From: a bacterium
GTDB lineage: Bacteria > SAR324 > NAC60-12
Direction: 5' to 3'
Assembly (NCBI GenBank): GCA_965205865.1
Contig: CBDBHR010000028.1
Location: 288,001 to 352,000, forward strand
Length of the DNA stretch: 64,000 nucleotides
Every line of letters begins with the position of its first letter. Positions within the stretch are counted from its first letter, which is position 1. The notes beneath the pieces were generated by a model. It made no database searches, was not told the DNA's origin, and was given only the letters and a program-made list of their open reading frames with translations. The translations under genes and the position numbers were made by a program. Below, in pieces: positions 34,281-58,698 of the stretch.

Positions 34281-34972
34281 GTGCGCCAGGAAAGCTGGCA
34301 AGAAATAGAGAGTGAAAGTCTCTTACTCGGTAAGGCAGTAACGACCCGCCGAGTCCCCGAGTCATGAGTGGTTATTCGCAAGGATAGGCGCTAAGCGTTG
34401 ACAGGGGAGAACATAGGCTCGGTATTGAGCTCCGAAATCATAGTTTCAGGTGCTGACCTTGTAGTCTGGTGGGGAAGGCAACATCAACCGAAGGCGTTAG
34501 CGTGAGTCCCGGTCGAGCCTGGCGGAGTCAAAGACCCGGTGCATGTGTGGAAGTTTCTTGATCGGAACCTGGGAGATCCTGAAGACGACTGTCAACATTC
34601 TATTGGTAGTCGGATCGGGAAAATTAATAAATAACCCCGATATCTACGTCTTCAGGAAGTCGGACAAGTTCGTAGTAGCGATGAAGCGGCGAACAATGAG
34701 ATCATTTGTAGAGAGTAATAATGCAAAGGAAATCAACGGAGCCTGTGGAGCAAAGGGACTTGGCTGAGAGGAATTCTGCTTGCCCTCCTGTGTTCGGAAC
34801 TCAGAGGCCGGTAAAATCAGAGAGCGGTTTAAGCAGGGTGCGCCAAACGGCAACGTCTGAGCGTCTGACTCGAAGCAGGAGCCGGATGCGTTAGCAGCGC
34901 ATGTCCGGATCTGTACCGGAGGAATGACGAAAGGTGGCTGGAAACCACTATAAGTCAGTTCTTTACGGTGAC
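34281..34972 (+). mobile_element. RT-deleted group II intron lineage A, copy 1, inside palindrome 34270-35040
   Basis: GTGCG start; domain V GAGCCGGATGCGTTAGCAGCGCATGTCCGGATC; domain VI with bulged A; ends GAC. Confidence 0.9.
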
Positions 34973-35736: not shown

Positions 35737-36153
35737 TCAATCACACCAGGATTCTCGTTTACCACCATCATATTTTCTAGTATAGTCATTTTCCAATAAA
35801 ATATCGGAGAGGTTCTCACCATCAAGAAAAACATCACAGACCAAGCGAAAATATTTACCACGTTCGCAGTCTTTCAAATCGATCTTTGTTGCTTGAGAAT
35901 GTAATTCTTCGACAAAGTCCCTGACTTGTTTCGCACGTGATTTTTCAATATCACACTTTCCTCGTATTTCAGGAGTATCAATTCCCCTGATGCGGACACT
36001 GATTTTATCTCCAAAAATTGCAAGAATATTTGCAATACTATATGTACAAGTATCTCCATCATAACATCGGTGCCATCGAACGTCGTAAAAATCCGCGGCA
36101 TCAACCATTAATGGAAATGGAAGTGCTAGTAAAAATAAAAGGAACATTCTCAT
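35737..36153 (-). CDS. Secreted thermonuclease (SNase-like), paralog 1
   Basis: Signal peptide; YDGDT, VRIRGIDTPE and RGKYFRLV motifs. Confidence 0.9.
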   Translation of the reverse strand: MRMFLLFLLALPFPLMVDAADFYDVRWHRCYDGDTCTYSIANILAIFGDKISVRIRGIDTPEIRGKCDIEKSRAKQVRDFVEELHSQATKIDLKDCERGKYFRLVCDVFLDGENLSDILLENDYTRKYDGGKRESWCD

Positions 36154-36330
36154 AACACATCTTTGATTGGGGTTGCAATTTCGACGCGCTTCTTCCGAAG
36201 GGCGTCGGGTTATTGCAACATGACCTAATCATAGGCGAAATGTCCCGATTATTTGTCCGAACCAAAGTGGCCAAACTTCAGTTCGAAATTGGACTTTTCT
36301 ATTCATCAGGTAACCCGACAAACTGACTAA
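36154..36330 (-). ncRNA. Candidate structured leader RNA, copy A; its promoter part lies beyond the IS5, at 37257-37338
   Basis: Homologous to 57451-57707, with compensatory base changes. Confidence 0.6.
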
Positions 36331-37256
36331 GAACTTATCCTTTAATAACTTGAAAATTGGTATTTCCTGCATTATTTTTGTCATCATGTTCAACCATAAA
36401 CGCATGGAGGCTATATGGCAAAAGTACAGTCGTGGGAAGTATCTGATTCATTTTGGGCCAGAGTGGAGCCACTGATACCAAAACCCAAACGTGACCCGAA
36501 CAAGACCTACAAGCGCAAACCCGGTGGTGGTAGAAAGCCAATGCCTGCGCGCCAAATTTTCGAGGGAATTGTATATGTTTTGCGCACCGGTTGTCAATGG
36601 AGAGCCCTTCCCAAGGAAAAATATGGGAGTCCTAGTGCCATCCATGCTCATTTCATGCGTTGGAATGAAGCGGGTTTCTTTTTGTCGCTTTGGCAAGCCG
36701 GACTTGCCGAATATGATGAGATGGAAGGGATCTCCTGGAAATGGCAAAGCATAGACGGCACGACTGTCAAAGCCCCACTGGCTCAGGAAACCGTTGGTCG
36801 AAACCCGACTGACAGGGGAAAAAAAAGGGAGCAAGCGTCATTTGCTGGTTGACGGCCGTGGTGTCCCGCTGTCCCTCGTCGTAACCGGGGCGAACCGGCA
36901 TGATGTGACACAGTTGGAATTGGTCTTGGAGGAAATCGTCATTGCGCGGCCTGAGGGCATTGAACAACACCTGTGCGCAGACAAAGGCTACCACGGTGAG
37001 CCAGCATCACAGATCATTCGATCCAATGATTATGTGCCACATGTGAAAAAACGGGGTGAAGAGATTCAAGAAAAAAAAGCAAATCCCCAATACAGACCCA
37101 GAAGATGGGTCGTCGAGGTGAGCCATTCATGGTTCAACAGATTTCGCAAGATAATGGTCCGATTCGAAAAATATAATCAAACTTATCTCGCACTGCTTCA
37201 ATTGGCTGCAGCTATCATAACTTACAGGAAAGTTAATGTTATTTAAGGATAAGTTC
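36331..37256 (+). mobile_element. IS5-family element (IS427-like), 926 bp
   Basis: Terminal IRs GAACTTATCCTTTAATAAC / GTTATTTAAGGATAAGTTC; TAA duplicated on both sides. Confidence 0.92.
36415..37246 (+). CDS. IS5-family transposase in two ORFs joined by a probable -1 frameshift
   Basis: LRTGCQWRALP, IDGT, ADKGY and RWVVE motifs; GGGGAAAAAAAAGGG slippery run near 36815-36829. Confidence 0.88.
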
Positions 37257-37393
37257 TAAGTCATATTGCAATTTTAAACCTATGTTACGGACAGAGAGTG
37301 TCAAGGGATTATCTTCAGCAGGATACTAGAAGATATTCTGTAGGGATTCAGGTCTCTCCTACTGCGACCCATGCATTCCATTGAGCATTGTAA

Positions 37394-38217: not shown

Positions 38218-39823
38218 GTGCGCCAGGAAAGCTGGCAAGAAATAGAGAGTGAAAGTCTCTTACTCGGTAAGGCAGTAACGACCCGCCGAGTCCCCGAGTC
38301 ATGAGTGGTTATTCGCAAGGATAGGCGCTAAGCGTTGACAGGGGAGAACATAGGCTCGGTATTGAGCTCCGAAATCATAGTTTCAGGCGCTGACCTTGTG
38401 GTCTGGTGGGGAAGGCAATATCAACCGAAGGCGTTAGCGTGAGTCCCGGCTGAGCCTGGCGGAGTCAAAGACCCGGTGCATGTGTGGAAGTTTCTTGATC
38501 GGAACCTGGGAGATCCTGAAGACGACTGTCAACATTCTATTGGTAGTCGGATCGGGAAAATTAATAAATAACCCCGATATCTACGTCTTCAGGAAGTCGG
38601 ACGAGTTCGTAGTGCGCACTGGGCAGCGCATGATTCAGGTGGGTTCAAGTTCCACTCAGCCTGAGATCCCAGGCTGATATCCAAAAGCGGGGGTAATGCC
38701 TCGCTGGCCGGAATGTTTACCAGGGCGCCATCCTGGGCGCTTTAAGCACAATGGGAGGTCGAAAGGGCCAAATGCACCGAAGTGAACTTCCGGAGGACAG
38801 GGTGTCCACCGTGAGGTGGAATCTGAAGGGTTTGCGGAGAATCACCGGGTCGTAGTCAAGGAGGCTACTCCAGAGACGAACCGGTCGGCCAACAGCAGGG
38901 AATGGTTGAGCTTGCACTATGATGGCGAAAGCAGTTGGATTCCCCCCTGCAATACCAAGGTGTGTGCGGACGACACGGTGAGGAAGAATCATGAGTGACC
39001 CCAGGAGGACTCAGGGCGTTCTTAGGTGGCACTAGGATAAGGGACCCTATAAGCGAAAGCGAAGTGGAAACCGAAGCGTGTTGAGTAGTCGGACCATCGA
39101 ATAGTACCTGAAGCGTAGTGAGAGCTACGTGACCGAGGGATCGGCAGCAGAGTGAGCTGGGGAAGGCGATGGGCAGAGAAGGTTGGAATGAGAAAGGAAG
39201 TCAGATGAGTAAGGACAGTGAGGTGGAAAGTTCGGTAAGTGAAAGACCCAGAACTCATGGCCCGAGGAGACTGGCTGACTGGATCAATCTAACGGGAGCA
39301 AAGAAGGTTCACTCCTTAGTGGACAAGATTTACAAGAAGCTCTCCCCGAAACAAGATTATATGGGGAGTATCGGTTAGTAAATCTGATCTCACTAATTCC
39401 TTCGATTGGTCCCTTCGGCAAACGGACTTCTCTGTGAAAGCCGGATGCGGGAAAACTGCACGTCCGGTTTGGGCGGCGGACGGTGGCTAGCGGAAACGCG
39501 CCTCCTCCGACCCGACAGCGATGAAGCGGCGAACAATGAGATCATTTGTAGAGAGTAACAACGCAAAGGAAATCAACGGAGCCTGTGGAGCAAAGGGACT
39601 TGGCTGAGAGGAATTCTGCTTGCCTTCCTGTGTTCGGAACTCAGAGGCCGGTAAAATCAGAGAGCGGTTTAAGCAGGGTGCGCCAAACGGCGAATCCGAA
39701 TCAACGTTTGAGCGTCTGACTCGAAGCAGGAGCCGGATGCGTTAGCAGCGCACGTCCGGATCTGTACCGGAGGAATGACGAAAGGTGGCTGGAAACCACT
39801 ATAAGTCAGTTCTTTACGGTGAC
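38218..39823 (+). mobile_element. Group II intron lineage A, copy 2 (outer intron of a twintron), inside palindrome ~38207-39892
   Basis: Near-identical to copy 1 once the ~0.9-kb insert is removed. Confidence 0.9.
38612..39516 (+). mobile_element. RT-deleted group II intron lineage B, nested in copy A2
   Basis: GTGCG start; domain V AAGCCGGATGCGGGAAAACTGCACGTCCGGTTT; ends CCCGAC; RT relic KKVHSLVDKIYKK joined to LPETRLYGEYRLVNLISLIP. Confidence 0.88.
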
Positions 39824-44327: not shown

Positions 44328-44891
44328 GTGATGGAAGCCATGCTCATTGATCATCAACGTGAAAAATTGATTAATCTAATCATATACTTTGCTACCCATA
44401 CTAAACGATTTCATAAAGTAAAGTTATTCAAACTTCTATATTTTTTAGATTTTGAACATTATTCTTTAACAGGCCGAAATGTCACTGGATTAGATTACTA
44501 TGCTTGGGATAATGGGCCATGTCCAAAAGATCTACATGAAGAAATTGATGATCCTCGATCAGATATGAAAGAGAGTATCACATTTAGTTCAATTTCATAC
44601 AAGAATGGAGATAGGTTAGATATCAAGCCACTTAAAAAATTTGACCCAAAACATTTCTCAAAGAGAGAGCTTCGCATTTTAGAAGGACTTGCAGAAGAAT
44701 ATAAAAATACCTTAGCAAAAGATATGATTGAAGAGACTCACTTAGAGAATCTTCCTTGGCATCAAATTTATAATGTGCAGAAAAATAAATATGCGCATAT
44801 CCCATATGAACTTACACTCAAAAGGCAAGAACAAGAGGAGATGAAACAATATATCGAGGGAACCCGTGATTTTTGGCAGGGATATGAATGA
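44328..44891 (+). CDS. Panacea-domain (DUF4065/SocA-like) antitoxin
   Basis: KL.KLLYFLDF.HY...G..VTG..Y.AW..GP and ETH...PW motifs. Confidence 0.85.
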   Translation: MMEAMLIDHQREKLINLIIYFATHTKRFHKVKLFKLLYFLDFEHYSLTGRNVTGLDYYAWDNGPCPKDLHEEIDDPRSDMKESITFSSISYKNGDRLDIKPLKKFDPKHFSKRELRILEGLAEEYKNTLAKDMIEETHLENLPWHQIYNVQKNKYAHIPYELTLKRQEQEEMKQYIEGTRDFWQGYE

Positions 44892-45526: not shown

Positions 45527-46228
45527 GTGCGCCAGGAAAGCTGGCAAGAAATAGAGAGTGAAAGTCTCTTACTCGGTAAGGCAGTAACGACCCGCCGAGT
45601 CCCCGAGTCATGAGTGGTTATTCGCAAGGATAGGCGCTAAGCGTTGACAGGGGAGAACATAGGCTCGGTATTGAGCTCCGAAATCATAGTTTCAAGTGCT
45701 GACCTTGTAGTCTGGTGGGGAAGGCAACATCAACCGAAGGCGTTAGCGTGAGTCCCGGTCGAGCCTGGCGGAGTCAAAGACCCGGCGCATGTGTGGAAGT
45801 TTCTTGATCGGAACCTGGGAGATCCTGAAGACGACTGTCAACATTCTATTGGTAGTCGGATCGGGAAAATTAATAAATAACCCCGATATCTACGTCTTCA
45901 GGAAGTCGGACAAGTTCGTAGTAGCGATGAAGCGGCGAACAATGAGATCATTTGTAGAGAGTAACAATGCAAAGGAAATCAACGGAGCCTGTGGAGCAAA
46001 GGGACTTGGCTGAGAGGAATTCTGCTTGCCCTCCTGTGTTCGGAACTCAGAGGCCGGTAAAATCAGAGAGCGGTTCAAGCAGGGTGCGCCAAACGGCAAT
46101 CCGAATCAACGTTTGAGCGTCTGACTCGAAGCAGGAGCCGGATGCGTTAGCAGCGCACGTCCGGATCTGTACCGGAGGAATGACGAAAGGTGGCTGGAAA
46201 CCACTATAAATCAGTTCTTTACGGTGAC
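45527..46228 (+). mobile_element. Group II intron lineage A, copy 3, inside palindrome 45516-46296
   Basis: Near-identical to copy 1; GTGCG...GGTGAC. Confidence 0.9.
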
Positions 46229-48921: not shown

Positions 48922-50754
48922 GACCCTAGCCGAAAAGGGTTTCGAAAATAGTAAATGTAACCAATTTGATTCTATTTGATTCTCTATTTGATTCAATATG
49001 ACGAGAAAACGATTTTTTTGTTTTTTATTCGCCCACAGCACAGTTTTTATAGGGAAAAAATCTTTTTTGGACATACTTTCCTCGCCCCTGCTCATATTTC
49101 ACACTCCCCCATTGAATATTCAGGCCGCTTGTTTGAGTTGTCTTTTTTTCAACTCAATCATTTTGCAAAAATTATAGGTTAATGCTTTTTCCAGCAACTC
49201 TGCCCGAACGTTTTCAATCCCTCTGCGCATAACTTGTCCGAAATGGAAACGATGCTTAAGATGAAACATCAACGACTCTGCAGCAGATCTTCCATTTCGT
49301 GATTCCAAATAGATTTCACTTTCCCATTCTTCAATCGGGGTCATCTTTTTTCCCTTTGCCCCACTAATACTAAAAACCTTAACGCCTTTGCCCATCCACT
49401 TTTCTCTGATCGCCTGATTGGCATATCCATCATCAAGGCTCACTTCAGAGGGAATGGTGATGGTGCATCGCAAATGTTCAACAAGGGCAGGGTCGAGTTG
49501 CCCTGAATCAGCAGCATTGCCCTCCGGAGTAATTAACACGGAAATAAAACCATTTCCGCTCCTTCCTAATTGAGGCTTATATCCGATAAGCGCTTCTCGA
49601 TCTCCCTTTTGAATATAAGCCGAGCTCTGATCGGAAAGACTCAATACTTTCTCAGTAGAAGGAACCTTCTTTTCTTCAAAAACTCTTTGATGACAGTAGA
49701 TGATTACCCGTTGCAAATTAGAAATATCTTCATTCATCATTTCAATGAGGCGAATCAAACGCGTTTTCCGAGAAGGGGGGAGAAGAGCTTTTTGGGCACG
49801 GATATCCACCTTTGCCATTTCTTTTAAAAATTTCCCATGAGCGCTTTGAGCTTTCTTCAATAGGGTTTTGTAATGTTTTTTTCGCTTCGTTTTACTGTCC
49901 TTTTTACCTGTCTCAAAAGCCATCATCTTAGAGAGCTTATTCATCTCCTTGATGAGGAAATCAAAATTTCTTTCACTGATCTCAGCGATTCCAAATGTAT
50001 CAAGGGAACGCCCTCGATGGTAGCTTCGCTCCACGAGACGAGTCAATATCGACGAATCAGTAGGCCAAGCTGTATTTCCTTTTACAGAGGTGCTATCCAG
50101 TTTTAAAATATCAAAATCGTCCAACTCTTCATCGAGAACCATTCGAATTTGAGCATCGAAAATAAACTGTCTGCTCTCGTTGCTGACAGCATTGACATTA
50201 TCAAGGATTGTACTCGCTCCCGGCATTTTCAATCCACGGTTGAGCAGAAGCAGATGCAGTGTGATTGACTCTGAAAGAAATATTTGGGCCGTTTGGGATT
50301 TGATACTTCCTAAATATCCCCGAATCATCATAAAAAGGTAGACTAAAAAAGCCGACATCCGAGGACACCCTATTTCCAGCCTCAGTTCTTCCGGCTTCAA
50401 TTCCTCATCTTCTACGGGAAGATGAGGAAGCCATGGATTCCGGGCTTCCTGCCATCGTTTATCCTCTAAACGCTCTTTCTTTTTATTTCTTGCGTATTTC
50501 TCCAAATCCTGTTCAATTTTGTCCAATATCTCCGGCTCTCGCTCAGACAATTGATCAAGTTCTGATAAGAAATTTTCAAATTCTGTATCAGGAGCGCTTA
50601 AAATAAGATGTTTTTCTGCTCGAATGAATGGTTTCATTTTGGGTGCCATAATTCTTAATATTGAAGTTATTCACAGTTATTTCAATGAATTATGGCACTT
50701 TTTAACCTCAAGTTTAAAGATATAATTCTAAAAAATACCTTTTCGGCTAGGATC
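48922..50754 (-). mobile_element. DDE IS (ISNCY/IS5-like), 1833 bp, tandem copy 1
   Basis: IRs GACCCTAGCCGAAAAGG / CCTTTTCGGCTAGGATC; TAGCTA on both sides. Confidence 0.93.
49120..50649 (-). CDS. DDE transposase, 509 aa
   Basis: LDST...N..WPTDS, LDDGY and RSAAES motifs. Confidence 0.88.
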   Translation of the reverse strand: MAPKMKPFIRAEKHLILSAPDTEFENFLSELDQLSEREPEILDKIEQDLEKYARNKKKERLEDKRWQEARNPWLPHLPVEDEELKPEELRLEIGCPRMSAFLVYLFMMIRGYLGSIKSQTAQIFLSESITLHLLLLNRGLKMPGASTILDNVNAVSNESRQFIFDAQIRMVLDEELDDFDILKLDSTSVKGNTAWPTDSSILTRLVERSYHRGRSLDTFGIAEISERNFDFLIKEMNKLSKMMAFETGKKDSKTKRKKHYKTLLKKAQSAHGKFLKEMAKVDIRAQKALLPPSRKTRLIRLIEMMNEDISNLQRVIIYCHQRVFEEKKVPSTEKVLSLSDQSSAYIQKGDREALIGYKPQLGRSGNGFISVLITPEGNAADSGQLDPALVEHLRCTITIPSEVSLDDGYANQAIREKWMGKGVKVFSISGAKGKKMTPIEEWESEIYLESRNGRSAAESLMFHLKHRFHFGQVMRRGIENVRAELLEKALTYNFCKMIELKKRQLKQAA

Positions 50755-50760
50755 TAGCTA

Positions 50761-52593
50761 GACCCTAGCCGAAAAGGGTTTCGAAAATAGTAAATGTAAC
50801 CAATTTGATTCTATTTGATTCTCTATTTGATTCAATATGACGAGAAAACGATTTTTTTGTTTTTTATTCGCCCACAGCACAGTTTTTATAGGGAAAAAAT
50901 CTTTTTTGGACATACTTTCCTCGCTCCTGCTCATATTTCACACTCCCCCATTGAATATTCAGGCCGCTTGTTTGAGTTGTCTTTTTTTCAACTCAATCAT
51001 TTTGCAAAAATTATAGGTTAATGCTTTTTCCAGCAACTCTGCCCGAACGTTTTCAATCCCTCTGCGCATAACTTGTCCGAAATGGAAACGATGCTTAAGA
51101 TGAAACATCAACGACTCTGCAGCAGATCTTCCATTTCGTGATTCCAAATAGATTTCACTTTCCCATTCTTCAATCGGGGTCATCTTTTTTCCCTTTGCCC
51201 CACTAATACTAAAAACCTTAACGCCTTTGCCCATCCACTTTTCTCTGATCGCCTGATTGGCATATCCATCATCAAGGCTCACTTCAGAGGGAATGGTGAT
51301 GGTGCATCGCAAATGTTCAACAAGGGCAGGGTCGAGTTGCCCTGAATCAGCAGCATTGCCCTCCGGAGTAATTAACACGGAAATAAAACCATTTCCGCTC
51401 CTTCCTAATTGAGGCTTATATCCGATAAGCGCTTCTCGATCTCCCTTTTGAATATAAGCCGAGCTCTGATCGGAAAGACTCAATACTTTCTCAGTAGAAG
51501 GAACCTTCTTTTCTTCAAAAACTCTTTGATGACAGTAGATGATTACCCGTTGCAAATTAGAAATATCTTCATTCATCATTTCAATGAGGCGAATCAAACG
51601 CGTTTTCCGAGAAGGGGGGAGAAGAGCTTTTTGGGCACGGATATCCACCTTTGCCATTTCTTTTAAAAATTTCCCATGAGCGCTTTGAGCTTTCTTCAAT
51701 AGGGTTTTGTAATGTTTTTTTCGCTTCGTTTTACTGTCCTTTTTACCTGTCTCAAAAGCCATCATCTTAGAGAGCTTATTCATCTCCTTGATGAGGAAAT
51801 CAAAATTTCTTTCACTGATCTCAGCGATTCCAAATGTATCAAGGGAACGCCCTCGATGGTAGCTTCGCTCCACGAGACGAGTCAATATCGACGAATCAGT
51901 AGGCCAAGCTGTATTTCCTTTTACAGAGGTGCTATCCAGTTTTAAAATATCAAAATCGTCCAACTCTTCATCGAGAACCATTCGAATTTGAGCATCGAAA
52001 ATAAACTGTCTGCTCTCGTTGCTGACAGCATTGACATTATCAAGGATTGTACTCGCTCCCGGCATTTTCAATCCACGGTTGAGCAGAAGCAGATGCAGTG
52101 TGATTGACTCTGAAAGAAATATTTGGGCCGTTTGGGATTTGATACTTCCTAAATATCCCCGAATCATCATAAAAAGGTAGACTAAAAAAGCCGACATCCG
52201 AGGACACCCTATTTCCAGCCTCAGTTCTTCCGGCTTCAATTCCTCATCTTCCACGGGAAGATGAGGAAGCCATGGATTCCGGGCTTCCTGCCATCGTTTA
52301 TCCTCTAAACGCTCTTTCTTTTTATTTCTTGCGTATTTCTCCAAATCCTGTTCAATTTTGTCCAATATCTCCGGCTCTCGCTCAGACAATTGATCAAGTT
52401 CTGATAAGAAATTTTCAAATTCTGTATCAGGAGCGCTTAAAAAAAGATGTTTTTCTGCTCGAATGAATGGTTTCATTTTGGGTGCCATAATTCTTAATAT
52501 TGAAGTTATTCACAGTGATTTCAATGAATTATGGCACTTTTTAACCTCAAGTTTAAAGATATAATTCTAAAAAATACCTTTTCGGCTAGGATC
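50761..52593 (-). mobile_element. DDE IS, 1833 bp, tandem copy 2
   Basis: Almost identical to copy 1; flanked by TAGCTA / GAGCTA. Confidence 0.93.
50959..52488 (-). CDS. DDE transposase, 509 aa
   Basis: Differs from 49120-50649 at one visible residue (I15F). Confidence 0.88.
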   Translation of the reverse strand: MAPKMKPFIRAEKHLFLSAPDTEFENFLSELDQLSEREPEILDKIEQDLEKYARNKKKERLEDKRWQEARNPWLPHLPVEDEELKPEELRLEIGCPRMSAFLVYLFMMIRGYLGSIKSQTAQIFLSESITLHLLLLNRGLKMPGASTILDNVNAVSNESRQFIFDAQIRMVLDEELDDFDILKLDSTSVKGNTAWPTDSSILTRLVERSYHRGRSLDTFGIAEISERNFDFLIKEMNKLSKMMAFETGKKDSKTKRKKHYKTLLKKAQSAHGKFLKEMAKVDIRAQKALLPPSRKTRLIRLIEMMNEDISNLQRVIIYCHQRVFEEKKVPSTEKVLSLSDQSSAYIQKGDREALIGYKPQLGRSGNGFISVLITPEGNAADSGQLDPALVEHLRCTITIPSEVSLDDGYANQAIREKWMGKGVKVFSISGAKGKKMTPIEEWESEIYLESRNGRSAAESLMFHLKHRFHFGQVMRRGIENVRAELLEKALTYNFCKMIELKKRQLKQAA

Positions 52594-52770: not shown

Positions 52771-53462
52771 GTGCGCCAGGAAAGCTGGCAAGAAATAGAG
52801 AGTGAAAGTCTCTTACTCGGTAAGGCAGTAACGACCCGCCGAGTCCCCGAGTCATGAGTGGTTATTCGCAAGGATAGGCGCTAAGCGTTGACAGGGGAGA
52901 ACATAGGCTCGGTATTGAGCTCCGAAATCATAGTTTCAGGCGCTGACCTTGTGGTCTGGTGGGGAAGGCAATATCAACCGAAGGCGTTAGCGTGAGTCTC
53001 GGCTGAGCCTGGCGCAGTCAAAGACCCGGTGCATGTGTGGAAGTTTCTTGATCGGAACCTGGGAGATCCTGAAGACGACTGTCAACATTCTATTGGTAGT
53101 CGGATCGGGAAAATTAATAAATAACCCCGATATCTACGTCTTCAGGAAGTCGGACAAGTTCGTAGTAGCGATGAAGCGGCGAACAATGAGATCATTTGCA
53201 GAGAGTAACAATGCAAAGGAAATCAACGGAGCCTGTGGAGCAAAAGGACTTGGCTGAGAGGAATTCTGCTTGCCCTCCTGTGTTCGGAACTCAGAGGCCG
53301 GTAAAATCAGAGAGCGGTTTAAGCAGGGTGCGCCAAACGGCAACGTTTGAGCGTCTGACTCGAAGCAGGAGCCGGATGCGTTAGCAGCGCACGTCCGGAT
53401 CTGTACCGGAGGAATGACGAAAGGTGGCTGGAAACCACTATAAGTCAGTTTTTTACGGTGAC
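52771..53462 (+). mobile_element. Group II intron lineage A, copy 4, inside palindrome 52760-53531
   Basis: Near-identical to copy 1; GTGCG...GGTGAC. Confidence 0.9.
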
Positions 53463-54194: not shown

Positions 54195-57100
54195 TCACTG
54201 CGGTAATTCTTTGATCAGCTTGACGGTTTCCAGACTGACGGTGATTACCTTGCCAATCAGTTTGACGATATACTGCGGGTCGTCCGGGCGGTTTGGGTCG
54301 TTGGTGATGCCGCTTCGTTTGTCGGTCTTGACGCGGTACTGATCGATCACCCATGCCAAGGCTGAGCGATTGCCCAGCCGGTAGTCAAACGCATCGGGTG
54401 GGATGCCAGCCAGGGTGAGGAAATCATTGTAGCGGATGCAAGTCTTGTCTTTGGAGAGTCTCATCTTTTCGACGCGCCAATCGAGGGACATACCGGGAGT
54501 CTCGATGAAGTCGAGGTGGTATTCAGGTTGGTCTTCGTAGGAAACATGGATGTCCCCCAAGCGCCTTCCTGTTTTGACGAAGCTCCAAAAATCCAGGAGG
54601 AGGGGGACACGAGGCAATTCCCGTTTGAGATTCGCCTTATACTTTTCACAATAGTCGGTTTGGTGTAATACCGCGTAAACGTAGTGAAAAATATCCCACT
54701 TGCTGATGGTCTCGTCCTGATACTGTGAACGGAATGCCTGCAAAGCCCAACCGGTGATGTTCTCCCGCCGGTTCGTCCCACCTTCTGTGTAAGTGTAGAA
54801 GGGGAAGCATTGGGAATCTCCAGTAAGGTGAAAATCCGATAGCAGATTTGTCATCAAGCAATGAAATGGCTTTTTATTTCCCACAGCAGTGACGCAAATA
54901 ACCCGATTTTCGATTTCCGTCTCCGGTGTGGGAAAAATGACCGGGAAGCTACCTCTTATATCGATCATAAGATGATCAAAGAAGAGGTTTGATTTGGTAA
55001 AGGGACGATAGATAGAATTTCGCACCTTATGTTCCGTGTATTCGGCACTTTTGTTTCGCTTCAATTTCAATTTTAAGTCACGACTCCAACTAATTTTCGT
55101 GTCATCGTAAACCGCAAAATCATCAACGTTGGTATTGAGATATTCGGATCGTTCCCATTTGAACACTTGTTCATTGTAGCACTCGATCGTCCGCTGCATG
55201 TTTTCGGCGAGCATGTTCCGGTTGAAATTGTATGCCCAAGCATCACGATTGGTTTTGACCCCATTACTATAGTGTTTGAAGATCACCTCCATCGTTTTAT
55301 CTTTTCCCCGTCTTGAGTCTTTGCTTCCCATAGGGATAAAGTTCTCGAATTCGGTGCGCAGTCCCTCCGTGAGCCATGTATGATTTTTATCCGGTCTCAG
55401 TTCCTGCCACTGCATTCCATCAACTGTACGGGCATTTTCGATCAGGTTGAATTTATCTCGTCTTGTGGCTCTCCAATACACGTCGCTATAATAAATTTTA
55501 TGGTCTTGATTTTGGGGGTTTTTCACAAAGAAGGTCACAGCAATCCCAACCATCGCCGCAAGACCGAAAACGGTATGCTTTTCTCCAATGGGGATCCCCT
55601 CTCTCATCGAGTCCTTACGTACGTTGCCTTTCAAATCCAGAACATAGACACGGTTAAAATCCTGATAAAGATGTTTCCGCATGCCATCAAAGGCGATACC
55701 TTCAAGGAAACTGTTGTTGGTGACGAAAGCGACAATTCCCTGATCTCCAATGCGGTCGCATGCCCAGCGTATGGCTTTCACGTATGGATCAGACAATTGG
55801 GCTTTCAAGGTCGCTCGTGAATCTCTGGCAAAGGTTCCCGAAACCCGTTGATCCAACGTCTCGTATTTTCGATTCTTATTATTGTCGTTCTCGTTTACCT
55901 GACCGACGTTGTAGGGAGGATTGCCGATAATCACAAACATCGGCGTCTCCTTTTGTTTTTCTACGCGCTTAGTGTTTTCAGGGGCAAAAAAATCAGTTTG
56001 TTCGTTGTTTTTCACTTTCGCCAGGTCGAAAGTATCCACGAGGCAGATGCCTTCGAAGGGCTGGTAAGAGCCCGTTGCCTGGTAAAACTCGTGTTCGATG
56101 TTCATCGAAGCAACGTAATAAGGCAGCAGCATCACCTCATTGCAGTGAAGCTCGCAAGCATACTTGTCCGGCAGCGCTGTCCTGCGGATCTCCCGCATGA
56201 TGCGGACGATGAAATTGCCGGTGCCCACGAAGGGGTCGATGATGTGTACTCCCTCGTCTGAAAGTGACGTATCAAATTCGCTCTGCAGGATCTGCTCCAC
56301 GCTTTTGACCATGAAATCCACAATGGGTTGCGGCGTGTAGACGATGCCGTGCGTATCGGCGACCTTGACTGAAAATCCCTGGAAAAACTGCTCGTAGACC
56401 GTGTTGAGGAAATGCTGTTTCTGTGAAAAATTGTTGATGGTTGCCGCCGTTCTTTCGATTGCGAGATAGAAGTGATCAAGACTACTTAGAAACTCATGAC
56501 GATTGAAGGATTGCGAGGTAAGAGCTTGGATCACTATTTCTATTTCCCTGGCAATGACGTTACGGTTAGTGAAATCAGGATTGTTGAAGACCCTGCGGAA
56601 GATCCGTTCTGTCAAAAGGTGTTGTATCAGCATCTCCTCAACTGCCGACTCAGAGAGGTTGGGATTGATCGAGGCGTGACATTTCTCCAGAAAGACTGCA
56701 AAGGCATTCTTAAAATGGTTGTTGTTTTTTCGTTCCCTTTGGATTAACTGAGCCACTTCACGTCCGATTTCGGGAACTTTGTCTTTGAACTGCGCAACCG
56801 CATCCTGCCATTCGGCGTATTCTTGCGGACGGTAGGAAAAAAAGGTCTGCAGCGTCTCGATCAATTGTTTCGGGTCGTTCAAGTCTTTATCGAGCACCCG
56901 CTGCTCATTTTGCCAGAGAATAGCTCGTTTTGGGGTTTGGAAGAGGATGTTCGTCTGTGGATACCCTGCCTCGAATTTGCGAAGCGCTTCTTTAGGTAAA
57001 TCGTCGTGGATGTCCTTGGCCTCCCAGTAGCCCTGCGGCAATTTGAATTTGTCGATCAAGGCGCCATCGACGACAATCCGTTTGTTCCGACCGAGGTTGA

Positions 57101-57275
57101 TGGAATCTTCAGGAATAAGCTTCCAGCCGCGCTGTTTTCCACACCCTTCGAGCAACGATTGAAATGCCGACCTCACTGCGCTTTCATGGGTAACGCCAAA
57201 ATGATCAAATTGCGCCAGGGAATGATAGTAATCTTTGATGACCTTGTGGCTGGGTTTGAGATTGAGTGCAAGCAT
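54195..57275 (-). CDS. Single-chain restriction-modification enzyme (type IIG / ISP-like without helicase)
   Basis: N-terminal VDG...WEAK nuclease motif; GIVYTP, DPFVGTGNF and GNPPY N6-MTase motifs; YRPF and SALAWVIDQY ISP-type C-terminus; an upstream start at 57341 is possible. Confidence 0.88.
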   Translation of the reverse strand: MLALNLKPSHKVIKDYYHSLAQFDHFGVTHESAVRSAFQSLLEGCGKQRGWKLIPEDSINLGRNKRIVVDGALIDKFKLPQGYWEAKDIHDDLPKEALRKFEAGYPQTNILFQTPKRAILWQNEQRVLDKDLNDPKQLIETLQTFFSYRPQEYAEWQDAVAQFKDKVPEIGREVAQLIQRERKNNNHFKNAFAVFLEKCHASINPNLSESAVEEMLIQHLLTERIFRRVFNNPDFTNRNVIAREIEIVIQALTSQSFNRHEFLSSLDHFYLAIERTAATINNFSQKQHFLNTVYEQFFQGFSVKVADTHGIVYTPQPIVDFMVKSVEQILQSEFDTSLSDEGVHIIDPFVGTGNFIVRIMREIRRTALPDKYACELHCNEVMLLPYYVASMNIEHEFYQATGSYQPFEGICLVDTFDLAKVKNNEQTDFFAPENTKRVEKQKETPMFVIIGNPPYNVGQVNENDNNKNRKYETLDQRVSGTFARDSRATLKAQLSDPYVKAIRWACDRIGDQGIVAFVTNNSFLEGIAFDGMRKHLYQDFNRVYVLDLKGNVRKDSMREGIPIGEKHTVFGLAAMVGIAVTFFVKNPQNQDHKIYYSDVYWRATRRDKFNLIENARTVDGMQWQELRPDKNHTWLTEGLRTEFENFIPMGSKDSRRGKDKTMEVIFKHYSNGVKTNRDAWAYNFNRNMLAENMQRTIECYNEQVFKWERSEYLNTNVDDFAVYDDTKISWSRDLKLKLKRNKSAEYTEHKVRNSIYRPFTKSNLFFDHLMIDIRGSFPVIFPTPETEIENRVICVTAVGNKKPFHCLMTNLLSDFHLTGDSQCFPFYTYTEGGTNRRENITGWALQAFRSQYQDETISKWDIFHYVYAVLHQTDYCEKYKANLKRELPRVPLLLDFWSFVKTGRRLGDIHVSYEDQPEYHLDFIETPGMSLDWRVEKMRLSKDKTCIRYNDFLTLAGIPPDAFDYRLGNRSALAWVIDQYRVKTDKRSGITNDPNRPDDPQYIVKLIGKVITVSLETVKLIKELPQ

Positions 57276-57450
57276 GAAACGATTATGCTGAAACGGGAAA
57301 AGCAATGAATAAATTTTACCATAGCGTTTGTAATCCCTCATTTCAATAAATTTGGCTCAAATGACCCGACGGGAGGAATCAAGATCTCACAGTCCTCTCT
57401 CTGGTTTTTCAAAGCCAGAACGAAATTCCTCTAAAAGACGCGCCGTCATG

Positions 57451-57707
57451 GAATATCTGCTTGCATCCTGCTGAAGTTAATCTCTTGACACTCTCCAGTC
57501 CCTAACATAGGTTTAAAAACGCAATAAAACTTACGTCAATTTGTCGGGTTACCCGATGAATAGAAAAGTCCAATTTCGAACCGAAGTTTGGCCACTTTGG
57601 TTCGGGCAAATAATCGGGACATTTTCACGTCCTTGATGTGAGTTTTGTTGCAACAACCCGACGCCTTAAAAAGGCGTCATGCAACACACATCAAAGAGGA
57701 GAATGTC
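57451..57707 (+). ncRNA. Promoter plus candidate structured leader RNA, copy B (intact)
   Basis: TTGACA(57485)-17-TAGGTT; 19-bp pairing of 57521-57539 with 57633-57651; further hairpins; AGAGGAG RBS. Confidence 0.62.
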
Positions 57708-58121
57708 ATGAAAAAGATTATTTGCGTTTTACTGTTTTTGTTCCCATTTTTACTTCTTGCAACCGAATTCAAAGACGTGATATGGCATCGTTGCTATGAT
57801 GGCGATACCTGCACCTACACTATTGCAAATGTTCCAGATATTTTTGGATACAAAATCCCTGTCCGAGTCAGAGGGATTGATACTCCTGAAATACGAGGAA
57901 AGTGTGATATTGAAAAATCACGTGCAAAACAAGTCAGAGACTTCGTCAGGGATTTACATTCACAAGCAACAACAATCGAATTGAAAAACTGCGAACGTGG
58001 TAAATATTTTCGCTTGGTTTGCAATGTGATTCTTGATGGAGAAAATTTATCTGAAATTCTAATCGAACGAGCTTATGCCAGAAAGTATGATGGTGGCAAA
58101 CGAGAATCCTGGTGTAACTGA
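57708..58121 (+). CDS. Secreted thermonuclease (SNase-like), paralog 2
   Basis: Signal peptide; YDGDT, VRVRGIDTPE and RGKYFRLV motifs. Confidence 0.9.
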   Translation: MKKIICVLLFLFPFLLLATEFKDVIWHRCYDGDTCTYTIANVPDIFGYKIPVRVRGIDTPEIRGKCDIEKSRAKQVRDFVRDLHSQATTIELKNCERGKYFRLVCNVILDGENLSEILIERAYARKYDGGKRESWCN

Positions 58122-58698
58122 ATAATCACTTAGCATGTGCTGATGTAAAAATGGAAATCGCATATCCATCCTCCCATTGGCACATGGCTACTTTGGGTAT
58201 GAAAATTGATGATCGTGCAGATCAAACTGACCATAATGTTTGCCACAATTAGCAGAACATCGAAAAGAAATGAACCAAAAATTATCTGACTTTCGTAAAG
58301 AAATTATTACAGGTTCAACATCATAAATTTGTAGTAACTATGGTACTAAAACTTAGTTGTAAAATGTCACCAAACAGTTTAACTGAACCAATTCAGATTG
58401 CTGTGCTTATTTCAAAAAATGGTGGACTTTGCGCTTTTAGACTTAGTGAAAATGAACTTTCAGAATATATAAAAAATTTCGCTGATTCTATTAAATATTT
58501 AAAGGAATACTTCCACAATTTACAATCCAGTAATTAAATTCTCATACTTGAATCATTTCCAATCATTCTTCTGGTAATCTCTGCCTTCTGATCAATCGTA
58601 TCTTTTTCACGCATATTTTTAAGATCTGCAAATATCGTCACCGCGCTCGTCGCTAAATGCACCCTCACCGATTTCATCGTGTTCTTCCTCATCGTCGT

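Follow-up and report, generated by a model that had tools for sequence, protein, structure and literature searches.

A covarying leader RNA family with competing long-range pairings in a SAR324 bacterium

Introduction

Riboswitches of the SAM-II and preQ1 type sequester the Shine-Dalgarno (SD) sequence and contain pseudoknots. The mRNAs of hok-type type I toxins, known from the literature of the Gerdes laboratory, form alternative fbi/tac and ucb/dcb pairings, and trp-type attenuators arrange four segments in a 1:2, 2:3 and 3:4 logic. A layout of upstream target, antisense segment and downstream target is said to occur in the c4 RNA of phage P1 and the CI RNA of phage P4, as reportedly set out by Citron and Schuster; the c4 system has upstream a1 and b1 boxes and two short a' and b' boxes. 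In phage P1 the genes c4, icd and ant belong to a single operon, and blocking of ant requires C4 RNA (PMC8198154). Here we describe a leader RNA encoded in a 64,000-nucleotide (nt) stretch of a bacterial genome from the SAR324 lineage (NAC60-12; GenBank assembly GCA_965205865.1, contig CBDBHR010000028.1, positions 288,001 to 352,000 of the forward strand), called the window below. The leader stands before two genes for SNase-like nucleases, at copies A and B, and was first noticed in a preliminary description of the window.

The leader belongs to a family that is real, strand-specific, covarying and uncatalogued, and that is found in one genus among the genomes searched. With moderate confidence, and on the basis of computed folds, we read it as a lineage-restricted, cis-acting translational riboregulator, in which an internal segment (the hub) would be contested by the 5'-terminal arm of the transcript and by the region of the ribosome-binding site (RBS), the outcome being set by a factor that reads a conserved core. 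As one of the two alternative hub partners extends over the SD and the start codon, translational control is the most economical reading.

Results

Architecture of the copy B leader

The features of the copy B leader are listed in Table 1, together with those of copy A and the genes that follow other copies. The long helix L of copy B closes with 19 of 19 pairs, three of them G-U, at a computed duplex energy of -25.5 kcal/mol (RNAduplex), and it is contained in the centroid fold. The minimum free energy (MFE) fold pairs the same 57633-57651 segment and the linker that precedes it with 57680-57694, continuing through the SD and the start codon. The hub can therefore pair with 57521-57539 or, alternatively, with 57679-57707. 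The hub:RBS duplex has an energy of -26.6 kcal/mol, which none of 300 shuffles of the RBS region equalled. A further pairing, between GUCGGGUUA (57543-57551) and CAACCCGAC (57654-57662), also written GUCGGGUU/AACCCGAC, crosses the long helix. The 206-nt leader as a whole folds with a z-score of -5.58, and none of 200 shuffles folds as well. The coordinates and pairings given for copy B in the preliminary description, namely the 19/19 helix, the alternative pairing with 57680-57694 and the crossing helix, are all correct. As a separate observation, copy B has a C at 57654, where 11 of 13 other copies have a U, and the last pair of the crossing helix is broken there (A-C); a contig from a related strain's RNA library has a T at this window position.

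The -10 element of the copy B promoter agrees with the consensus at three of six positions, and the whole promoter scores 9 of 12. It is absent from a consensus-scan listing because of the poor -10 match. The same promoter is kept in copy A and in the orthologue of the sister genome (L024), and it places the predicted transcript start of copy B 0-2 nt before 57521. Across the family, 7 of 13 copies have a sigma-70-like promoter, matching at 9 or more of 12 positions, whose end lies 8-10 nt ahead of the first paired base of L, and weaker candidates lie at the same distance in L023, L014, L027 and L019. Helix L is therefore predicted to involve the very 5' end of the mRNA.

Table 1. Features of the two leaders in the window and genes behind leader copies. 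Positions are window coordinates.
Feature	Position	Strand	Description
Copy B promoter	57485-57490; 57508-57513	+	-35 TTGACA, 17-nt spacer, -10 TAGGTT; read in sequence
Copy B helix L, 5' arm	57521-57539	+	GCAAUAAAACUUACGUCAA; 5'-terminal segment of the transcript, pairs with 57633-57651
Copy B conserved block, half-sites a and b	57540-57562	+	UUUGUCGGGUUACCCGAUGAAUA; near-invariant in 12 of 14 copies
Copy B hairpin P3	57568-57607	+	variable sequence on a conserved GUCC/GGRC base; RNAalifold
Copy B conserved block, half-site c	57608-57620	+	AAAUAAUCGGGAC; 3' strand of P2, or partner of 57657-57661
Copy B hub	57619-57651	+	pyrimidine-rich anti-SD linker (57619-57632) plus L 3' arm (57633-57651)
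Copy B helix L, 3' arm	57633-57651	+	UUGAUGUGAGUUUUGUUGC; partner of 57521-57539
Copy B PK 3' strand, half-site d	57654-57662	+	CAACCCGAC; overlaps hairpin P4
Copy B hairpin P4	within 57654-57678	+	GACGCC 57660-57665 / GGCGUC 57673-57678; RNAalifold
Copy B downstream target of the hub	57680-57710	+	UGCAACACACAUCAA 57680-57694, SD GAGGAG 57696-57701, start codon 57708-57710
Nuclease gene B	57708-58121	+	SNase-like secreted nuclease, 137 aa, N-terminal signal-like segment; Pfam SNase PF00565
Copy A promoter and outer L 5' arm	37256-37304	-	TTGACA 37304-37299, TAGGTT 37282-37277; outer 14 nt of the arm 37269-37256
IS5-family insertion sequence splitting copy A	36331-37255		925 bp; transposase frames 36415-36852 and 36794-37246 (+)
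Copy A remaining leader	36154-36326	-	last 3 nt of the L 5' arm, core, P3, hub, PK 3' strand, P4
Nuclease gene A	35737-36153	-	SNase-like, 138 aa, frame still open; Pfam SNase 24.2 bits
SNase-like nucleases			behind A, B and L026
Lipoprotein			235 aa; behind L015
Lipoprotein			more than 487 aa; behind L016
Cys/His-rich secreted protein			63 aa; behind L017
Membrane peptide			37 aa; behind L023

Covariation and strand of the leader family

The aligned copies share one order of elements: promoter, L 5' arm, UUU, the block GUCGGGUUACCCGAUGAAUAnAAnAGUCC, the variable hairpin P3, the block AAAUAAUCGGGAC, the pyrimidine-rich linker and the L 3' arm, followed by GCAAUAACCCGRCGYC running into P4, often UUGCAAC, and finally the SD and AUG. 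From transcript start to start codon the leader measures approximately 165-190 nt, and helix L has 16-19 bp. The junctions and half-sites are nearly invariant, and L, P3 and P4 vary freely.

Pairing in helix L was assessed without an alignment by comparing the 34 nt upstream of each copy's core with the linker region of every copy. For 10 of 14 copies the cognate arm outranks all others. Cognate duplexes have energies of -13 to -31 kcal/mol, and non-cognate ones average about -10. The exceptions are L016 and L017, which have imperfect helices, and the twin copies L019 and L020.

A covariance model that covers L, P2, P3 and P4 (R2) was used to build an alignment of 13 copies (A8), from which copy A was left out because of its insertion sequence (IS). 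In this alignment 86.9% of cells are paired, compared with 70.1% in shuffles. Double changes affect 32 of 45 pairs. Five measures were applied, and on none of them does a single one of 500 shuffles come up to the alignment itself; sliding the partner by 1-3 columns leaves only 33-46% of cells paired. Double changes occur at 16 of 19 pairs in L, 2 of 4 at the base of P3, 10 of 10 in inner P3 and 3 of 6 in P4. The outer four pairs of P3 are paired in 92.3% of cells and the six pairs of P4 in 89.7%; the lower value for inner P3 (67.6%) arises because the alignment is imperfect there.

The structure is that of a sense-strand RNA, since G-U pairs outnumber A-C mismatches by 67 to 13 overall (38 to 8 in L, 11 to 0 in P2 and 15 to 4 in P4) and since the reverse strand of two loci scores 23-24 bits, compared with 55-178 bits for forward copies. 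The covarying structure with sense-strand G-U pairs that had been proposed from two copies is supported by the family.

Alternative pairing at the ribosome-binding site

The hub:RBS duplex outperforms all 300 shuffles in four of nine copies (B, L024, L017 and L023), and in L018 a fraction of 0.04 of shuffles does as well. Constrained folding of eight intact leaders puts the SD-sequestering fold at the MFE, or within 1 kcal/mol of the L fold, in B, L016, L017 and L018; in the other four the L fold is better by 5-12 kcal/mol. From these computed energies it is plausible that the two states lie close enough for switching. The earlier proposal of a riboregulator controlling translation of a secreted nuclease is therefore upheld as regards the alternative RBS pairing, but the leader is not specific to nucleases and the pairing stands clear of shuffles only in the four copies named.

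The main rival explanation involves no switch at all. Helix L might bury the 5' end of the mRNA against 5'-end-dependent decay or, as 17-19 bp stacked on the core hairpin H1, serve as an RNase III site, with the conserved core acting as a recognition site for a protein or RNase. Such a role in stability or processing would suit a helix that begins at the predicted +1 in most copies, that stacks on the 9-bp H1 in the predicted fold to give approximately 28 contiguous pairs (B and L024), and that is thermodynamically preferred in four of the eight copies folded. It leaves unexplained why the hub is complementary to the SD and start region far beyond chance in B, L024, L017 and L023, and why four half-sites stand in a mutually exclusive arrangement, and we consider it unlikely.

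The conserved core

Four complementary half-sites lie within the core, namely a (GUCGGGU), b (ACCCGAU), c (AUCGGGA) and d (AACCCGRC), and they flank the variable hairpin P3 and conserved purine-rich junctions. Four helices can be drawn between them: the local hairpin H1 (a:b), P2 (b:c), the pseudoknot-type pairing PK (a:d) and c:d. All are compatible with nearly all of 14 copies, and the block at 57540-57562 of copy B can form either H1 or the 5' strands of PK and P2. One compensatory double change each is found in H1 (L026), P2 (L018, C-G to U-A) and PK (L019), and none in c:d. RNAalifold favours PK stacked on P2, whereas single-sequence folding favours H1. Hairpin P4 overlaps half-site d by 3-4 nt. 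The L 3' arm and d are separated by a mere 2 nt, from which we infer on geometric grounds, and not from a computed model, that full-length L (16-19 bp) and PK exclude one another.

The half-sites could also be viewed as DNA. Under this explanation the palindrome TCGGGTTACCCGA and two extra half-sites would be operators bound by a transcription factor, and the RNA pairings of the core would be incidental. The palindrome is a near-perfect 13-bp DNA palindrome placed about 25 bp downstream of the predicted start, and TCGGG and CCCGA half-sites recur approximately 70 and 115 bp further on. Yet the palindrome occurs essentially only inside leaders, where it is embedded among covarying RNA helices with a strong G-U bias, and through the compensatory changes in P2 (L018) and PK (L019) half-sites that would be independent under a DNA model are tied together. 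A 15-mer spanning a and b gives 11 genomic matches with up to two mismatches, 7 of which lie inside leader copies; this near-confinement argues against a general DNA operator. We give the operator explanation hardly any weight.

Two further candidates were rejected. A leader peptide is not indicated: the conserved AUG in GAUGAAUA has no SD, and the points at which its frames end vary between copies, as judged by reading the sequences and not by a formal test. Transcription attenuation fails since neither the U-tract nor the hairpin is conserved and since most copies have a linker hairpin that does not outdo shuffles; a terminator-like scan match (57624-57642 followed by TTTTGTTGCA) is present in copy B only.

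Extent of the family

A BLAST comparison of copy B with its own genome pointed to further, diverged versions of the core. A covariance model built on this core (R1) found nine full and two partial copies in that genome and five in the single sister genome of the same genus. The claim that the leader lies upstream of both nuclease genes is accurate as far as it goes, but the leader is by no means confined to them. Of 100 relatives searched besides the genome itself, R1 found copies in that sister genome and in none of the other 99, and a separate model search of 88 genomes of the phylum, own genome included, gave the same two genomes only; both searches used Infernal's stricter filters, and many of the genomes are incomplete. 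The degenerate 23-nt pattern TTTGTCGGGTYNYNNNRTGAATA matched 25 loci in a collection of species-representative genomes, three of which are real by the model and all of these from the sister genome. In a metagenome collection the pattern matched 24 loci, none of them real (best model scores 23.8 and 23.4 bits). It matches 10 of 15 known copies, and diverged relatives can be missed.

A search of the whole window against Rfam with cmscan at gathering score, as the preliminary description had proposed, returned only group II intron and tRNA matches. In E-value mode (E of 10 or less), positions 57300-57800 and 11 leader loci gave only unrelated matches, with E of at least 0.8. No Rfam family is matched at the leaders. 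A literature search on riboswitches in SAR324, of which part of the retrieved material was available, contained no paper on this leader RNA, and one on riboswitch candidates or motifs linked to thermonucleases found nothing. An RNA thermometer of the ROSE or fourU type is likewise not supported, there being no Rfam match to one and the fold being far more complex than a single SD hairpin, though temperature might still be the cue.

Two pairs of copies bear marks of rearrangement. L019 (G000:C29:726919-727027) and L020 (G000:C29:763181-763290) are near-identical leaders in which P3 is much shortened. Their 32-nt 5' flanks are identical, as are about 60 bases downstream, and neither has an open reading frame (ORF) directly behind it; a degenerate copy seems to have undergone segmental duplication recently. 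L014 (G000:C29:96907) and L022 (G000:C30:787094-787243) agree in the 5' flank and in the leader's first half, and the sequence of L022 after P3 is unrelated to L014, which places a recombination or rearrangement breakpoint inside the leader.

Genes behind the leaders

Intact ORFs follow 7 of 16 copies (Table 1), and all of them start with a signal-like or membrane segment, as judged by eye. SNase is the only Pfam family among these genes; nuclease B matches PF00565 at 29.4 bits (E = 1.1e-6). In the sister species, the nuclease B orthologue behind L024 (G001:C1:3598213-3601342, about 1668-1755) is reduced to a 28-codon stump, with promoter and leader intact and helix L compensated to 17 of 17 pairs. 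L018 precedes a 39-codon remnant. The remnants and the copies that have no ORF behind them indicate that leader-gene modules turn over quickly.

The spread of the leader over different genes bears on the idea that the conserved core is an aptamer for a metabolite or second messenger, and thus a new riboswitch class, in which the b:c plus a:d fold releases or captures the hub. This idea is a sharper version of the translational riboregulator and does not contradict it. Sequence-conserved junctions and half-sites amid covarying helices are the usual signature of a riboswitch, a mutually exclusive expression platform covers the SD, and many copies per genome before different genes resemble a regulon. 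Set against this, the family occurs in one genus only (2 of 101 relatives and 2 of 88 phylum genomes), the downstream genes point to no metabolite, and the aptamer fold, with PK enforced, is 6-15 kcal/mol worse in seven of eight copies, in calculations of nested folding that give no credit to tertiary contacts. We regard an aptamer as possible, though doubtful. More tentatively still, the family might represent a new ligand-sensing riboswitch class, confined to sponge-associated bacteria of the SAR324 type, that governs a small regulon of secreted proteins; its architecture would be unusual, with the 5' arm, the core pseudoknot and the RBS contending for the hub. As its ligand one could imagine a nucleotide second messenger, or a signal derived from the host or the community.

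Copy A is split by an insertion sequence

The preliminary description reported a 17/17 helix for copy A. The 17-mer in question, GCAATATGACTTAGTCA, is interrupted in the window: on the reverse strand its first 14 nt occupy 37269-37256 and its last 3 nt 36326-36324, and a 925-bp IS5-family element separates them. With the IS removed in silico, the 5' arm does pair at 17 of 17 positions with 36231-36215 (-26.1 kcal/mol), so the helix holds for the leader before insertion but not for the window as it stands. The remainder of the copy A leader scores 133.6 bits with the covariance model, and its SD has decayed to GAUGUG.

The element has inverted ends, a target duplication TTA(G) and the Pfam domains DUF4096 and DDE_Tnp_1, and it is present in at least 10 genomic copies of 97.5-99.9% identity. 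These copies share window positions 36328-37257 and not the leader. An origin of the leader as an IS end, a possibility raised in the preliminary description, or as a miniature inverted-repeat transposable element is rejected: the IS is inserted in copy A only and is absent from copy B and the other copies. The element itself looks active, and further copies of it lie within a few kilobases of two more leaders (C16:15296-16233 near L015 and C1:3653-4584 near L018).

Matches in metatranscriptomes

Four metatranscriptome runs (X17-X20) were compared with window positions 57200-58400; among the RNA runs that match parts of the window, some are labelled sponge metagenome. Contigs from X17, 95-99% alike, span the nuclease B ORF. 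One 159-nt contig from X20, 90-95% alike, covers 57607-57755 and so takes in P3 (3' half), the SD and the beginning of the ORF, and its 17 loose leading letters resemble another P3 variant. X18 has no match on the stretch compared and X19 matches only 57205-57266, upstream of the leader; the uncovered parts are uninformative. The X20 contig is consistent with the leader and the gene being co-transcribed in a related strain.

Surroundings of the leaders

Divergently from the copy B promoter, positions 54195-57341 (-) encode a 1048-aa protein that resembles Type ISP restriction-modification enzymes, with coupler, N6-methylase and C-terminal specificity domains. Its first Pfam match begins at residue 184, and the Pfam listing holds no nuclease or helicase domain match; it may be an N-terminally truncated or methylase-only form. 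More widely, 33-60 kb of the window is an island of introns, insertion sequences and defence genes. Four group II intron D1-D4 matches (158-165 bits) lie on the forward strand at 34315-34537, 38252-38474, 45561-45783 and 52805-53027, and an Intron_gpII domain match lies at 39436-39516 (+). Two ORFs for 509-aa DDE transposases (49120-50649 and 50959-52488, both -) have identical Pfam scores and stand 310 bp apart, and are probably a tandem pair of one IS. A SocA/Panacea antitoxin-domain protein (44328-44891, +; 72 bits) is followed by an overlapping 138-aa ORF that matches no Pfam family, a possible toxin-antitoxin pair.

Discussion

A model for the translational riboregulator is as follows. 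Acting on mRNAs that encode exported proteins, the leaders would control translation and perhaps stability as well. Their hub, made of the anti-SD linker and the L 3' arm, would have two mutually exclusive partners. In the presumed ON state the hub would pair with the 5' end of the transcript as helix L and leave the SD free; in the presumed OFF state it would pair with the segment after P4, through the SD and the start codon. A putative trans factor, which might be a small ligand, a protein or a physical cue, would bind the core and shift the balance between the states.

Several points weigh against this model. Only two genomes carry the family, and its copies are paralogues and not independent lineages. 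Seven of the 16 copies have no usable ORF behind them (L014, L019, L020, L025, L027, the partial L021 and L022), and many copies may be decaying. The pair counts of alignment A8 are inflated, since it was fitted to the structure in the model, a bias that the alignment-free comparison of helix L does not share. Pairing of the hub with the RBS is only marginal in A, L015 and L016 (matched by 0.06-0.09 of shuffles) and no better than shuffles in one of the nine copies (L026, 0.43). Cognate and non-cognate hub:RBS energies moreover differ little, because the segments concerned are conserved between copies. The core helices barely vary, so H1, P2, PK and c:d are indistinguishable by covariation. 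Expression is represented by a single contig of low depth (about 2) that gives neither ends nor strand and might reflect DNA carry-over. Finally, switching is deduced from computed folds, and a trigger is postulated to account for it.

If the model is right, the leaders add to the known structured regulatory RNAs an uncatalogued family with clear covariation. A secreted nuclease and other exported proteins would come under one shared sensor, forming a small secretome regulon in an uncultured symbiont of a group, sponge-associated SAR324, for which literature searches turned up no described RNA regulator. Its compactness makes the design amenable to tests in a heterologous host. How far the finding can be generalised is limited by the narrow distribution and by the number of decayed copies, which also suggest rapid turnover of the leader-gene modules.

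The comparison with P1 c4 and P4 CI offered in the preliminary description captures the layout: within one transcript, the central segment of the leader is complementary to an upstream segment and to the downstream RBS region. In a c4/CI-like mechanism an antisense RNA would be cut from the leader and act on the RBS region, with the upstream copy as a decoy. The arrangement of upstream partner, central segment and downstream partner that such a mechanism needs is real, but no copy has an Rfam match, the C4 family included, and there is no prophage immunity (icd/ant-like) context. By Pfam annotation, the neighbours of copy B are the Type ISP gene upstream and the SNase gene downstream, with IS elements and introns around and no phage immunity genes. 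The arms differ between copies, so that an excised RNA could act only on its own transcript, and no processing sites are apparent in the leaders. Each copy has complementary segments of its own, 16-19 nt long and joined in one long helix, unlike the boxes of the c4 system. Membership of the c4 family is not supported by either the model match or the genomic context, and we hold a c4-like mechanism to be very improbable.

Other described systems share single aspects of the leader. As in hok mRNAs, the 5' end of the mRNA lies in a long-range helix, and mutually exclusive folds decide access to the SD; the partner of the 5' end here is an internal hub and not the mRNA 3' end, and the downstream genes encode nucleases and lipoproteins, with a short hydrophobic ORF at only one of 16 copies (L023, 37 aa). 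We know of no antisense gene for the leader. Like the segments of trp-type attenuators, half-sites a-d can pair as a:b plus c:d or as b:c (plus a:d), but the leader has no conserved leader peptide or conserved intrinsic terminator. With SD-sequestering translational riboswitches of the SAM-II and preQ1 type it shares a conserved core, covarying peripheral helices, a pseudoknot-type pairing and a helix over the SD and start codon. It differs from them in matching no Rfam family, in its restriction to one genus, and in the 16-19-bp helix at the 5' end, which provides a third competitor. Overall, the leader works most like a translational riboswitch or riboregulator to which a competitor at the 5' end of the transcript has been added.

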